DNA from: Escherichia coli
GTDB taxonomy: Bacteria > Pseudomonadota > Gammaproteobacteria > Enterobacterales > Enterobacteriaceae
Direction: 5' to 3' (one strand)
Length of the DNA: 64,000 nucleotides
Assembly: GCF_003334305.1 (NCBI RefSeq)
Contig: NZ_QOWS01000005.1
Shown here: positions 17,012 to 56,176 of the stretch, one piece after another
Numbering within the stretch: position 1 is the stretch's first letter
How the letters are laid out: every line of letters starts with the position of its first letter
Notes under the pieces: generated by a model
The model's database searches: none
What the model saw: the letters and a program-made list of their open reading frames with translations, nothing else
What the model was told of the DNA's origin: nothing
Translations under genes and position numbers: made by a program

Positions 17012-17138
17012 TGCTACTCTCCTTTATTATTAATTTGCATACGTACAATAGCCTTATTGTGCGTATGGATAGGGTAGCAAATTAAAAGGTGAGACAAAAG
17101 ATGAACTTACCCTGTTGCCGTAACAACAGGGTAAAGTT

Positions 17139-38117: not shown

Positions 38118-39620
38118 TTACGCTACAGCAGCTTTCGCCGCTTTGTCTGCAGCGTCATCCTGCGTCATACGGTGCAGTTTAGGCGCGGTCAGCAGCATCA
38201 GTACTGCAATAATGGCAGTAGCGACACCAATCTGCAAGAATACGCGACCATAAACTTCCAGTGACATCAGCGGGTCGGTAACGTTATCCGGCACAGCCAT
38301 CATACCCGCAACATAACCACCAATCAGGTTTGCACCGGCAGTGGTCAGGAACCAGCTACCCATAATGAAGCCCATCAGACGCTGCGGAACGAGTTGTGCA
38401 ACCATTGCCAGACCCAGACCAGAGATCATCAGTTCCCCGATGCTCTGCAGGCCATAGCTTGCGACCAGCCAGCTTACAGACACGATACCAGCGTCAGACG
38501 CGAATTTCGCACCCAGCGGCAGAATCAGGAACGCACCAGAACACATCACCATGCCGATTGCAAACTTGGTTGGCATCGGCAGGGTATCGCCCATCTTGTT
38601 ATAGATAGCGGCCAGAATCGGACTACCGATGATGATCCAGAACGGGTTCAGTGCCTGATACTGCTCAGGTTCTACGGCCAGACCCAGAATGGAGTGCTCA
38701 ACGTTACGAATCGCAAAGAAGTTCAGTGACGTTGGCATCTGGCTGTACAGCACGAAGAAGATAATGGCTTCGAGCATCAGGATGAAGGCAACGATCATTT
38801 TACGACGCGCAGCACCTTTCATCGCGAAGGCTTCTTTACCGAAGATAACCACGATACCGAAGGCAACAACGCCCAGCGCCATACGCGCAACTTCCTGATT
38901 GTGCAGCAGCCAGGTGGCGATAGCGATCAGTGCCACAACACCAATAATGGTCAGCAGCAGGTTACGGTAGTTGATAGGCTCGAAGTCTGGTTTTGAACCG
39001 TACTGTTTAACCCAGCGTTGGCAGAAGGCGAAGTTAACGATAGTGATCAGCAGGCCTACAACGCTCAACGCAAACGCAACACTCCAGCCGTATTTCGCGG
39101 CCAGCCACGGCGTAGCAATCATAGAGAAGAAAGAGCCGATGTTGACGGACATGTAGTACATGGTGAATGCACCGTCCAGACGCGGGTCGTTTTTCTCATA
39201 GCATGTAGAAAGCAGAGAAGACGGGTTAGCTTTAAACAGGCCGTTACCGACCGCAATAGCCGCCATACCCATATAAACGATACCGGCGTCGTGACCAGAC
39301 CAGGCAACCAGAGCATAACCAATCGCCAGCACAATAGCGCCGAGCATAATTACGCGTTTAGTACCCAGTACCTTGTCACCTAACCAGCCGCCGATAGCGA
39401 CCAGACCATAAACCAGGGCACTAAAGGAAGAGAAAAGGGTGATTGAATCCGCTTCAGACATACCCAGTTGTTTAACCAGGTAAACAGCCATAATTCCTTG
39501 TAGGCCGTAATAACCAAAACGTTCCCATAACTCAATCGAGAAGATGAGATAGAACGCCTTCGGTTGTTTGAAAGCGTTCAAACTGACGCTTTCAGTTGGT
39601 TTTTGGTTTGCAGTGGACAC
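38118..39620 (-). CDS. dtpA: Proton-dependent di-/tripeptide permease DtpA (PTR2/POT family)
   Basis: ORF-track 500 aa; POT signature region [10 protein letters not shown]. Confidence 0.95.
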
Positions 39621-40230
39621 TTTTACCTCTTTTTTTACATCCCATATTAACGGGGGTGCTTTCTCGCGTTATGTCTAAAAAACATACGCGCAATTGTTAT
39701 AGTGGGAGGGGAAACGGCAGGTAATGTTCACTATCTTGCACTTTCAGACAAGTCCTTTGTAATAATCTGTTACATATAACTGAGGCGGGGAATTCAACCA
39801 TTCCGGGAAATGTTATCCAGCGTTAAATTTTTCAAAAAACGTAACGGCAGATTTTTTCACTGCACTGAGAGGGGGGTGATGGCTTAACGGCGATATGTTC
39901 TGCTATTTAGCGTTTTTACTAGTGAGATAGTCCAGTTTCTGAAAAATAGCCAGTGTAATGTTTTGTAGGTCAATATTTGTTGCGTGTGTAAATTTAAATG
40001 ATTTTAACCTGATTCTTGCAATGTTTTTACATTGCGACAGCATCGTGATCTTGATCACGAATGAATAGAAAATTTCGCTATTAAAAAAACAATTAACCTG
40101 CATTTTTGGTTATCTGCAAACGGATTACCTGATGATAACGCTAAGCAATGGCATCATTCACGTTAAAAAGATGTTTTAAAAGAGGATAAAGAAAGGTTAT
40201 CAATGGGGTAATCGGTGTTACCCCTTTTCT

Positions 40231-40866
40231 TCAGATGTCAACTTTCTCTTTGTATTCACAAAGATCTTCAATAATACAAGAGCCACAGCGGGGCTTGCGG
40301 GCAATGCAGGTATAACGCCCGTGCAGGATCAACCAATGGTGGCAGTCGACTTTAAACTCTGCCGGAACCACTTTCAGTAGCTTTTCTTCTACCTGTTCGA
40401 CGTTTTTCCCCGGCGCAAATTGAGTACGATTACAAACGCGGAAAATGTGCGTGTCGACAGCAATAGTCGGCCAGCCGAATGCAGTGTTTAATACGACGTT
40501 GGCTGTTTTACGACCTACGCCGGGCAGGGCTTCAAGCGCAGCACGATCTTCCGGAACCTCGCCATTATGCTGCTCCAGCAAGATACGGCAGGTTTTGATG
40601 ATATTTTCTGCTTTGCTGTTATAAAGCCCAATCGTTTTGATATAGGTTTTCACCCCTTCAACGCCCAGTTCAAGCATCGCTGCAGGCGTATTCGCCACCG
40701 GGTAGAGTTTCGCCGTCGCCTTATTAACACTGACATCGGTCGCCTGAGCGGAAAGCAGTACGGCAATCAGCAATTCAAAAGGCGAACTGAAATTAAGCTC
40801 GGTGGTGGGATGAGGATTGTTCTCACGCAGGCGAGTGAGGATCTCCAGGCGTTTTGCTTTGTTCAT
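40231..40866 (-). CDS. nth: Endonuclease III
   Basis: ORF-track 211 aa; HhH-GPD fold and C-terminal 4Fe-4S Cys cluster; last gene of the rsx-nth operon. Confidence 0.97.
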   Translation of the reverse strand: MNKAKRLEILTRLRENNPHPTTELNFSSPFELLIAVLLSAQATDVSVNKATAKLYPVANTPAAMLELGVEGVKTYIKTIGLYNSKAENIIKTCRILLEQHNGEVPEDRAALEALPGVGRKTANVVLNTAFGWPTIAVDTHIFRVCNRTQFAPGKNVEQVEEKLLKVVPAEFKVDCHHWLILHGRYTCIARKPRCGSCIIEDLCEYKEKVDI

Positions 40867-54253: not shown

Positions 54254-55021
54254 GTGTTTAATTCTGACAACCTGAGACTCGACGGAAAATGCGCCATCAT
54301 CACAGGTGCGGGTGCAGGTATTGGTAAAGAAATCGCCATTACATTCGCGACAGCTGGCGCATCTGTGGTGGTCAGTGATATTAACGCCGACGCAGCTAAC
54401 CATGTTGTAGACGAAATTCAACAACTGGGTGGTCAGGCATTTGCCTGCCGTTGTGATATTACTTCCGAACAGGAACTCTCTGCACTGGCAGACTTTGCCG
54501 TCAGTAAGCTGGGTAAAGTTGATATCCTGGTTAACAACGCCGGTGGCGGTGGTCCTAAACCGTTTGATATGCCAATGGCAGATTTTCGCCGTGCTTATGA
54601 ACTGAATGTGTTTTCTTTTTTCCATCTGTCACAACTTGTTGCGCCAGAAATGGAAAAAAATGGCGGTGGCGTTATCCTGACCATCACTTCTATGGCGGCA
54701 GAAAATAAAAATATAAACATGACTTCCTATGCATCATCTAAAGCTGCGGCCAGTCATCTGGTCAGAAATATGGCATTTGACCTGGGTGAAAAAAATATTC
54801 GGGTGAATGGCATTGCGCCGGGGGCAATATTAACCGATGCCCTGAAATCCGTTATTACACCAGAAATTGAACAAAAAATGTTACAGCACACGCCGATCAG
54901 ACGTCTGGGCCAACCGCAAGATATTGCTAACGCGGCGCTGTTCCTTTGCTCGCCTGCAGCCAGCTGGGTAAGCGGACAAATTCTCACCGTCTCCGGTGGT
55001 GGGGTACAGGAGCTCAATTAA
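54254..55021 (+). CDS. hdhA: 7-alpha-hydroxysteroid dehydrogenase (SDR family)
   Basis: ORF-track 255 aa with GTG start; SDR cofactor motif TGAGAGIGKE and YxxxK catalytic motif (YASSK). Confidence 0.95.
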   Translation: MFNSDNLRLDGKCAIITGAGAGIGKEIAITFATAGASVVVSDINADAANHVVDEIQQLGGQAFACRCDITSEQELSALADFAVSKLGKVDILVNNAGGGGPKPFDMPMADFRRAYELNVFSFFHLSQLVAPEMEKNGGGVILTITSMAAENKNINMTSYASSKAAASHLVRNMAFDLGEKNIRVNGIAPGAILTDALKSVITPEIEQKMLQHTPIRRLGQPQDIANAALFLCSPAASWVSGQILTVSGGGVQELN

Positions 55022-55249
55022 TACACTAACGAACCGGTAAACAGCCGTATGTGTTGTTTACCGGGATAGCGTGTGCAATTCATCAACGTCTCTGCTAAAC
55101 AACTGGCAGCCAAATCACGGCTATTGGTTAACCAATAGCTGGATGAAAAGCATACGAATAGAGTGTGCCTTCGCACTATTCAACAGCAATGATAGGCGCT
55201 CACCTGACAACGCGGTAAACTAGTTATTCACGCTAACTATAATGGTTTA

Positions 55250-55840
55250 ATGATGGATAACATGCAGACTGAAGCACAACCGACACGGACCCGGATCCTC
55301 AATGCTGCCAGAGAGATTTTTTCAGAAAATGGATTTCACAGTGCCTCGATGAAAGCCATCTGTAAATCCTGCGCCATTAGTCCCGGGACGCTCTATCACC
55401 ATTTCATCTCCAAAGAAGCCTTGATTCAGGCGATTATCTTACAGGACCAGGAGAGGGCGCTGGCCCGTTTCCGGGAACCGATTGAAGGGATTCATTTTGT
55501 TGACTATATGGTCGAGTCTATTGTCTCTCTCACCCATGAAGCCTTTGGGCAACGGGCGCTGGTGGTCGAAATTATGGCGGAAGGGATGCGTAACCCACAG
55601 GTCGCCGCCATGCTTAAAAATAAGCATATGACGATCACTGAATTTGTTGCCCAGCGGATGCGTGATGCCCAGCAAAAAGGCGAGATAAGCCCAGACATCA
55701 ACACGTCAATGACTTCACGTTTACTGCTGGATCTGACCTACGGTGTACTGGCCGATATCGAAGCGGAAGACCTGGCGCGTGAAGCGTCGTTTGCTCAGGG
55801 ATTACGCGCGATGATTGGCGGTATCTTAACCGCATCCTGA
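55250..55840 (+). CDS. uidR: TetR-family repressor of the uid operon
   Basis: ORF-track 196 aa. Confidence 0.9.
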   Translation: MMDNMQTEAQPTRTRILNAAREIFSENGFHSASMKAICKSCAISPGTLYHHFISKEALIQAIILQDQERALARFREPIEGIHFVDYMVESIVSLTHEAFGQRALVVEIMAEGMRNPQVAAMLKNKHMTITEFVAQRMRDAQQKGEISPDINTSMTSRLLLDLTYGVLADIEAEDLAREASFAQGLRAMIGGILTAS

Positions 55841-56176
55841 TCCTCTCATTTCGCGGGCTGGTGATAACTGTGCCCGCGTTTCATACTTTAATTTCCCTGT
55901 ACAAAATACAATCTAGCCGGGATCGGAGAATTCCCCCCAAAAATATTCACCGTAGCCATATGTCATGAGAGTTTATCGTTCTCAAGATGCTCGAACGAAC
56001 GTTCGATTGCTTATTTTATGGCTTCTGTCAACGCTGTTTTAAAGATTAATGCGATCTATATCACGCTGTGGGTATTGCAGATTTTGGTTTTTTGATCGCG
56101 GTGTCAGTTCTTTTTATTTCCATTTCTCTTCCATGGGTTTCTCACAGATAACTGTGTGCAACACAGAATTGGTTAA

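Follow-up and report, generated by a model that had tools for sequence, protein, structure and literature searches.

The 610 bp that separate nth from dtpA (also known as tppB or ydgR) form the largest intergenic gap in the DNA considered here, a window of 64,000 nucleotides from contig NZ_QOWS01000005.1 of Escherichia coli. We conclude with good confidence that this spacer is made up of the 3′ end of nth (approximately 125 bp) and of the control region and leader of dtpA (approximately 480 bp), that the conserved motifs of the latter probably act jointly, and that no gene is hidden between them. The identity of the spacer is in itself ordinary and largely published. What the literature that we found does not explain is the fixed geometry of a distal group of motifs, together with a CRP-type site centered 335.5 bp upstream of the transcription start site (TSS), which would be a refinement of a known kind of system. 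The long AT-rich gap at this locus is, in short, a complex promoter and not a missed gene.

The nth-dtpA spacer is long, AT-rich, and part of the core genome

All coordinates given here are those of the window, which is reversed with respect to K-12; a K-12 coordinate is obtained as 1752389 minus the window coordinate. Both genes are on the minus strand, dtpA (GTG start) at positions 38118–39620 and nth at 40231–40866, and the spacer occupies 39621–40230 (1712159–1712768 in K-12, where the arrangement is identical and the RefSeq annotation places nothing between nth and dtpA). The next largest gaps are uidA-uidR, with 387 bp, and grxD-mepH, with 333 bp, as measured in the annotated genome of strain H15, in which the spacer shows 100% identity to that of the window. 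The original prediction, drawn from the letters of the sequence, had described a gap of about 610 bp, longer than any other in the window and AT-rich with several A/T tracts, and it was accurate on both counts: the guanine-plus-cytosine (G+C) content is 36.9%, against 51.4% in dtpA, 49.5% in nth, and 50.8% in the entire window, and there are eleven runs of at least five A or T bases. The spacer is core E. coli DNA, found at ≥95% identity in 5424 of 5426 complete genomes of the species, and its length is not an accident of one strain, as it measures 570–620 bp in nearly all of 80 genomes of Enterobacteriaceae.

Conservation splits the spacer in two and the motif spacing is fixed

Using DtpA as a probe we retrieved 80 loci from Enterobacteriaceae, one genome per species, and in all of them the upstream neighbor of dtpA is nth. 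The exceptions to the usual spacer length are Kosakonia, with approximately 1170 bp, and Intestinirhabdus, with 738 bp. The conservation profile, based on a MAFFT alignment of 72 of these spacers, has two parts. The nth-proximal 125 bp or so are poorly conserved (approximately 0–50%), while from position 40100 to the start codon of dtpA some ten sharply bounded, near-invariant blocks are separated by DNA that has diverged to randomness. A check for conservation across enterobacteria had been suggested together with the original prediction, and its outcome is positive for the dtpA-proximal 480 bp and negative for the segment next to nth.

The spacing between the conserved motifs, designated M1 to M10, is almost free of insertions and deletions across at least 25 genera. 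M5 and M6 are 42 bp apart in all 61 genomes where both were located, and the distances M6-M8 (74 bp), M8-M9 (55 bp), and M9-M10 (40 bp) are each the same in 81 of 81 genomes. Of 77 genomes, 61 have an M1-M10 distance of 362 bp and the others deviate from it by no more than 2 bp, and 67 of 77 have an M1-M2 distance of 24 bp. M1 is found 476–481 bp from the start codon of dtpA (69 genomes); the distance from the nth stop codon to M1 ranges across genomes from 93 to 708 bp. Column by column, the 132 most informative of 415 columns are approximately 90% identical to E. coli and the 145 least informative 31%, that is, saturated, with four-fold degenerate sites of dtpA at 55% for comparison; these figures partly describe the selection itself, because the column classes were chosen by conservation, and they count for less in favor of our interpretation on that account. 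Within Escherichia, motif columns are 98–99% identical, vs. 70–73% at four-fold sites. The pattern of conservation shows no 3-nucleotide periodicity, and approximately one third of the dtpA-proximal 480 bp is under strong purifying selection.

The block keeps company with dtpA in genomes where the surroundings differ. In Kosakonia, a 141-amino-acid open reading frame (ORF) for a membrane protein is inserted between nth and M1 and the block is untouched. Genes of this kind (141–152 amino acids, MNFHPWLNALHI..., on the opposite strand) were observed in Kosakonia and its relatives (loci L045, L048, L054, L056–L058, L060, and L070), where the insertion doubles the spacer to approximately 1170 bp and leaves the upstream block of about 480 bp intact. 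In two Erwiniaceae, dtpA has other upstream neighbors. That of Erwinia billingiae (locus L084, 1838–2500) is a divergent gene of the TetR family, with 663 bp of non-coding DNA ahead of dtpA, and that of Paramixta manurensis (locus L085, 1996–2500) is a gene for a BCCT transporter, with 505 bp. Both species have the −35 element and the promoter at the enterobacterial offset, and their best CRP-like palindromes, with three mismatches to the family consensus, are at −435 and −437 from the start codon. A degenerate element resembling M1 is present at the same offset in Erwinia billingiae only, with 6 of 18 positions mismatched, and no M1-like sequence was found in Paramixta. Cedecea and Shimwellia have the enterobacterial layout at the same offsets, with exact M1, M2, and M10 in Cedecea and two to five mismatches in most motifs in Shimwellia. 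The block of approximately 480 bp travels with dtpA and not with nth, even where nth is not adjacent.

The promoter, proximal sites, and leader of dtpA

That the spacer should hold the dtpA promoter and its regulatory sites, as was originally proposed, is borne out by both conservation and published footprints. The core promoter (39716–39751, minus strand) consists of a −35 element TTGTCT (39746–39751), a 17-bp spacer, and a weak −10 element AACATT (39723–39728), with the TSS at approximately 39716. This combination ranked first in a sigma-70 weight-matrix scan of the 72 aligned spacers and agrees with the published distances of transcription factors from the TSS. Position 39716 was derived from the peak-to-TSS distances published for OmpR and GadX, whose footprints we converted as window = 1752389 − (U00096.2 + 1976). 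The activator OmpR has a peak in chromatin immunoprecipitation with exonuclease treatment (ChIP-exo) at U00096.2 1710621–1710680, centered at −46.5 (PMC5438342 supplement), which corresponds to 39733–39792 of the window. This footprint contains M9 (TTATATGTAACAGATTATTACAAAG; 39756–39780, −64 to −40), whose opposite strand carries TGTTA-like tandem repeats 10 bp apart, and at this 10-bp spacing 35 of 45 genomes score at least 9 out of 10. The peak of the repressor GadX, from the GadEWX study, is at U00096.2 1710534–1710554, centered at −151 (PMC4918353 supplement); in the window this is 39859–39879, and the footprint forms, with the conserved M7 (gcAGtgaAAAAAaC; 39846–39863), a feature at 39846–39879. 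A dtpA fusion from −201 to +15 is OmpR-dependent, being activated at low and repressed at high OmpR, and dtpA does not respond to osmolarity (PMC5175337). YdcI has also been reported to bind upstream of dtpA.

The promoter needs an activator, because its −10 element is poor although the −35 is good. A recurrent A-to-T change annotated as "nth/dtpA intergenic (+503/−108)" arose in three long-term starvation cultures and was accompanied by a rise of approximately 23-fold in dtpA mRNA (PMC7858067). The −108 change falls on position 39728 and converts AACATT into TACATT, improving the −10. Another −10 candidate, TATAAC (39698–39703), which would give a leader of approximately 70 nucleotides, was dropped, since the published peak-to-TSS distances and the −108 up-mutation fix AACATT as the −10.

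Transcripts from this promoter start with a 5′ leader of approximately 96 nucleotides (39621–39716, minus strand) whose structure is conserved. The leader opens with a conserved C-rich stretch, CCGTTTCCCCTCC..TATAAC, and continues with hairpin 1 (39665–39690), which varies widely in sequence and keeps its stem, and hairpin 2 (39641–39654, CCCCG/UGGG), followed by an A-run, the Shine-Dalgarno sequence AGAGG (39626–39630), and the GTG start. The same two hairpins were predicted in all 45 non-redundant leaders (median −17.7 kcal/mol, median z = −2.3), RNAalifold gave a consensus of −7.4 kcal/mol with z = −11, and both hairpins show covariation. Neither the Shine-Dalgarno block (AAAAAGAGGTA) at −14 nor the GTG start varies in any of the 81 genomes. 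The dtpA (tppB) mRNA is reported to be a target of the small RNA (sRNA) GcvB (PMC9299463).

Some minor observations concern this part of the locus. A 12-codon ORF (ATG...TAA or TGA) lies over hairpin 1 (39665–39690) in E. coli, Citrobacter, and Salmonella; it is probably incidental, as neither its start nor its frame is conserved in other genera, and a regulatory upstream ORF in the leader was rejected for this same lack of conservation. Many deposited DtpA entries have 541–559 amino acids, with an N-terminal extension of approximately 53, which is a mis-annotated start codon, since the extension would begin upstream of the mapped TSS. On the plus strand, a terminator-like hairpin (TTGAAAGCGTTCAAACTGACGCTTTCAG plus TTGGTTTTTG) lies at 39567–39595, within the first codons of dtpA. 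On the dtpA strand the same segment reads as a C/A-rich sequence, ACTGCAAACCAAAAACC, whose nucleotides are conserved and which would be suitable for pairing with GcvB.

Conserved motifs upstream of the published footprints

Beyond the published OmpR and GadX footprints we found approximately eight conserved motifs, reaching −384 and located on the minus strand unless they are symmetrical. The dtpA block is bounded upstream by M1 (CAGGTTAATyGTTTTTTT; 40083–40100, −384 to −367 from the TSS). Next to it, the conserved M2 (AAATTTCTATAcAt; 40062–40075) has in E. coli the sequence TAGCGAAATTTTCTA, which agrees at 13 of 15 positions with the Lrp consensus YAGHAWATTWTDCTR, and it is possibly an Lrp site; binding of Lrp to the region is not documented in the literature that we found. 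M2 is followed by a CRP-type palindrome, cGTGATCAAGATCACg (family consensus TGTGATCnnGATCAC), at 40044–40059, with its center at 40051.5, that is, −335.5 from the TSS. It conforms to TGTGA-N6-TCACA with the inner TC..GA flanks, is located 436–438 bp from the start codon in Enterobacteriaceae, and is the only match to TGTGATCnnGATCACA (≤2 mismatches) in the 64 kb, with 0.26 expected by chance. We infer that this CRP site is functional. In a genomic SELEX screen (systematic evolution of ligands by exponential enrichment) performed in vitro, tppB is listed as a new target of cAMP-CRP (PMC3105977).

M4 (gatAAC.t.aTGTTa.attttTgTt; 40016–40041) consists of TGTTA-like direct repeats 11 bp apart, center to center. 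The 11-bp spacing has a mean score of 8.36 out of 10, vs. 6.2–6.7 for spacings of 9, 10, 12, and 13 bp, and 19 of 45 genomes score at least 9. An ArcA box is formed by two direct repeats 11 bp apart, center to center (PMC3798270), and the M4 family has this geometry; M4 would be a putative ArcA-type site. Closer to the promoter are M5 (aCaa.AcAtta.aCcag..aTTTTTcaGAttatgG.CtATATCACTg; 39920–39966), identified by its conservation, and M6 (aaatAGCAGAAcATATcGCC; 39889–39908) and M8 (tgAAATTTAACGCTgaATAACATTT; 39808–39834, −118 to −92), each present in 81 of 81 genomes. The opposite strand of M8 carries TGTTA-like repeats 10 bp apart, in the orientation and at the spacing seen in M9, and at 10 bp it scores 8.76 out of 10, with 39 of 45 genomes at 9 or more, which points to a second OmpR-type tandem site.

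Several other assignments were considered for these motifs and rejected. M1 with its T-run could have been the sense-strand terminator of an sRNA derived from the 3′ untranslated region of nth, but its only stem is the 5-bp AT-rich TTAAC/GTTAA, without covariation. An RNA helix formed by the GCTATTT/AAATAGC inverted repeat across M5-M6 was discarded because the pairing is lost in Kluyvera and Klebsiella. A sigma-54 or sigma-E promoter in M5 was ruled out by the absence, or the lack of conservation, of the key dinucleotides or the −35, and an operator of the LacI family or of Cra in M1 by a central CG that varies between genomes.

A model for joint control of the dtpA promoter

These results can be assembled into a model in which the 125 bp or so next to nth are the rapidly evolving 3′ terminus of the rsx-nth operon, whose stop codon is directly followed by a stem-loop, and the rest of the spacer serves dtpA. 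Published data and our sequence analysis together show that the promoter is activated by OmpR, which binds the 10-bp tandem repeats at −64 to −40, and repressed by GadX from −151; on the same grounds, the structured leader of 96 nucleotides is a target of GcvB. Farther upstream, from −204 to −384, a distal module would hold the CRP site, the adjacent ArcA-type repeats, and at least four further motifs (M1, M2, M5, and M6). As the motif positions are near-invariant while the DNA between them has been randomized, the motifs would be bound jointly in a phased, bent, or looped complex, and the geometry suggests that this complex would bring the distal factors to an OmpR-dependent promoter more than 300 bp away. 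One promoter could then receive inputs from carbon supply (CRP), redox state or anaerobiosis (an ArcA-like regulator), the envelope and acid (OmpR and GadX), and possibly amino acids. In Salmonella, tppB is reportedly induced by anaerobiosis and leucine (Jamieson and Higgins, in 1984), and in Shewanella peptide transporters, dtpA included, are reportedly under the control of ArcA.

A more specific version is that the segment from −204 to −384 is a rigid, indel-intolerant scaffold for CRP, a regulator of the ArcA or OmpR family, and at least two other factors bound at M1, M2, M5, and M6, controlling the promoter by looping or wrapping. We regard this version as tentative, and somewhat doubtful as it stands. 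Were it true, the scaffold would be an enhancer-like input to a sigma-70 promoter that is older than the split between Enterobacteriaceae and Erwiniaceae. In a variant of it, the scaffold would also fire a conditional, CRP-dependent divergent transcript in some lineages.

A number of observations weigh against such a role for the distal motifs. The literature that we found contains no experiment in which DNA upstream of −201 affects dtpA, and the −201 fusion already reproduces both the activation by OmpR and the repression at high OmpR (PMC5175337), so a distal site is not needed for the latter. Large cassettes are tolerated in the nth-ydgR spacer, and the distal module would therefore not be essential in the laboratory. 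With its center at −335.5, the CRP site is at no standard activating position (−41.5, −61.5, −72.5, −82.5, or −92.5), and among the 72 spacers there is no conserved promoter at class I or class II distance from it on either strand. The M4 of E. coli is itself degenerate (TGTAA-N6-TGCAA, 7 out of 10), the main text of the ArcA ChIP-seq paper (chromatin immunoprecipitation with sequencing) does not mention dtpA, and the OmpR ChIP-exo study reports a single dtpA peak (PMC5438342). The assignments to ArcA, to Lrp, and to a second OmpR site are resemblances to consensus sequences.

The nth-proximal segment and the possibility of a second promoter

The variable segment next to nth (40101–40230, minus strand), distinguished by its poor conservation and variable length, corresponds to the 3′ untranslated and termination zone of nth. 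Directly 3′ of the nth stop codon lies a GC-rich hairpin, GGGGTAACACCGATTACCCC in the nth sense (40205–40232), with an 8-bp stem that includes four GC pairs (40205–40224). The plus strand, convergent with nth, carries the T-run (TTTTCTTC), which overlaps the complement of the nth stop codon. Read along nth, the tail after the hairpin is ATTGATAACC, and the U-tract that a Rho-independent terminator would need 3′ of the stem on the minus strand is not there. The expectation that the spacer contains the nth terminator thus holds as far as the GC-rich hairpin after the stop codon goes, and fails at the minus-strand U-tract. The hairpin is probably a 3′ stem-loop or terminator for nth, and in Escherichia it has the orientation of a terminator of transcripts from the plus strand. 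The plus-strand T-run is present in all Escherichia loci. In Citrobacter the side of the T-run varies, and the hairpins of other genera are unrelated or, by the criteria used, absent.

This orientation bears on the strongest alternative to our interpretation, namely that the distal module contains a second CRP-controlled promoter, which would serve either dtpA, giving it a leader of approximately 400 nucleotides, or a divergent plus-strand non-coding RNA convergent with nth. A conserved consensus CRP site at a fixed position needs some nearby target, and a plus-strand TATTAA is found approximately 40 bp from the CRP center in E. coli, E. albertii, Salmonella, and Pseudescherichia vulneris. The plus-strand alternative would take the form, in Escherichia, of a class II promoter with TATTAA at 40079–40084, a start at approximately 40091, and an end at the 40205–40232 hairpin, whose T-run is on the plus strand throughout the genus, yielding an RNA of approximately 140 nucleotides. 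Also on the plus strand, a sigma-70 match restricted to E. coli (TTAACC-18-TACATT, with its −10 ending at 40033) scores 8.1. The comparative data are nevertheless unfavorable. The arrangement resembling class II on the plus strand occurs in few genera, the −10 candidates are not conserved outside these, and around the CRP site the 72 genomes have a low median promoter score on either strand. Moreover, no part of the spacer is less conserved or more variable in length than the segment that would be transcribed, the terminator orientation is limited to Escherichia and some Citrobacter, the fold predicted for the RNA of approximately 140 nucleotides is unremarkable (z = −1.1), and the Term-seq tables give no 3′ end for the hairpin. 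We therefore consider a second promoter unlikely; a CRP-dependent RNA of about 140 nucleotides could in principle be made as a minor, lineage-restricted product.

The spacer shows no sign of an RNA or protein gene of its own

The length of the gap had also been taken to leave room for an unannotated small RNA or small ORF. Much less probable than a second promoter is an independent, trans-acting sRNA of the Hfq or ProQ type, although the spacer is long, has one terminator-like hairpin, and contains conserved blocks of 15–25 nucleotides that could in principle be seed regions. The spacer has no match in Rfam below E = 3.5. RNAalifold, run in a sliding window on 30 sequences less than 80% identical, with the dtpA leader as a positive control, returned a consensus energy of 0 on both strands everywhere from 40194 to 39778. 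There is no terminator conserved across genera and no conserved pair of promoter and terminator for an sRNA, the sole candidate pair being specific to Escherichia. In the tables of Adams et al. (2021), consecutive Term-seq ends are at 1704702 and 1715904, with none in the spacer, and there is neither an entry for "dtpA" nor a coordinate beginning with 17121 to 17125; the supplementary tables of Ettwiller (2016) and Kim (2012) have no entries in the spacer either, and all of these tables are possibly incomplete, which makes their silence weak evidence. K-12 has no RefSeq annotation for such an RNA. The blocks, for their part, extend over 360 bp at fixed spacing, and several of them are sites in DNA (the CRP palindrome, the 10- and 11-bp repeats, and the OmpR and GadX footprints).

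We give equally little credence to the view that the upstream 300 bp or so are functionless AT-rich filler, coated for example by nucleoid proteins, and that only the proximal 200 bp matter. This view accommodates the −201 to +15 fusion, which reproduces OmpR control (PMC5175337), the tolerance of the locus to large insertions, and the low G+C content of this part (35%). It is contradicted by the near 90% identity of M1–M6 across genera whose neutral sites are saturated, by their position being fixed within 2 bp while the adjacent nth-proximal DNA gains and loses hundreds of bp, and by a CRP-like palindrome at the same offset where the neighboring gene is a different one.

As for a protein, the 66-amino-acid ORF on the minus strand (39903–40103), which the original prediction had already called spurious, is indeed a chance ORF: no Shine-Dalgarno sequence precedes it and it is interrupted in every species other than E. 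coli, by an in-frame stop at codon 39 or a frameshift in other Escherichia (E. albertii, E. whittamii, and others) and by multiple stops in all other genera examined. No ORF of at least 25 codons is open in most species on either strand, save for a stretch of the conserved leader that is free of stops but has no conserved start. A small protein, whether encoded by the 66 ATG-initiated codons of E. coli or by something shorter, such as the 12 codons over leader hairpin 1 with their unconserved start and frame, can be dismissed in a pattern of conservation that has no 3-nucleotide periodicity. There is, in sum, no support for an independent RNA or protein gene in the spacer, whose length is accounted for by conserved DNA-level motifs of dtpA.

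Comparison with other complex promoters

The nearest precedents known to us are the F4 site of ompF and the CRP/Lrp region of pap, and both are offered as analogies. In ompF, reportedly (Huang, Lan and Igo, in 1994), OmpR binds at F1–F3 and at a distal F4 (approximately −380 to −350), with repression mediated by a loop. Both genes have a sigma-70 promoter that depends on OmpR and is weak in a core element, OmpR half-sites in 10-bp tandem immediately ahead of the −35, and conserved direct repeats of response-regulator type more than 300 bp upstream. Their mRNAs are both under sRNA control (MicF for ompF and GcvB for dtpA), and dtpA resembles ompF in being activated by low levels of OmpR and repressed by high ones (PMC5175337). 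They differ in that a single OmpR peak is reported for dtpA, that its distal repeats have the 11-bp spacing of the ArcA type instead of 10 bp and are adjacent to a consensus CRP site, and that its repression at high OmpR takes place without the distal site and there is no response to osmolarity.

The pap promoter has CRP at −215.5 and six Lrp sites, and ilvIH and gltBDF have phased Lrp arrays, gltBDF reportedly being controlled by Lrp, IHF, CRP, and ArgR. As in these systems, the putative CRP site of dtpA is far upstream, outside class I and class II positions, the sites are spread over 200–400 bp, and their arrangement depends strongly on spacing; M2 is similar to the Lrp consensus, and the Salmonella tppB is reportedly inducible by leucine and anaerobiosis. 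Unlike them, dtpA has no methylation switch and no divergent regulatory gene, and its candidate factors were proposed from the sequence. A third comparison is with ompC-micF, where an envelope gene under OmpR control is likewise preceded by a long spacer to which OmpR binds, and in the dtpA spacer opposite-strand −10 matches overlap the OmpR site. Here, however, there is no conserved opposite-strand RNA, terminator, or structure, and the neighbor is the end of the nth operon and not a divergent gene.

Consequences for the use and study of the locus

Large constructs and genome-integrated promoter libraries are routinely placed in the nth-ydgR spacer, a standard landing pad regarded as "neutral" (PMC2847246; bioRxiv 10.1101/2020.01.04.894907). 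With approximately one third of the block conserved, insertions may disturb the control of dtpA and place reporters beside the CRP, OmpR, and GadX sites. Expression of dtpA is a repeated target of selection in long-term starvation (PMC7858067), and DtpA imports peptides and peptide-like drugs, so knowing all of its inputs matters. The fixed spacing over approximately 360 bp, with randomized DNA between the motifs, also provides a natural test case for geometry-dependent, long-range control at a sigma-70 promoter.

Elsewhere in the window, at approximately 54350–55894 (1507543–1509087 in the record of strain H15), hdhA, which codes for 7-alpha-hydroxysteroid dehydrogenase, is split by a frameshifted IS1A according to the H15 annotation.

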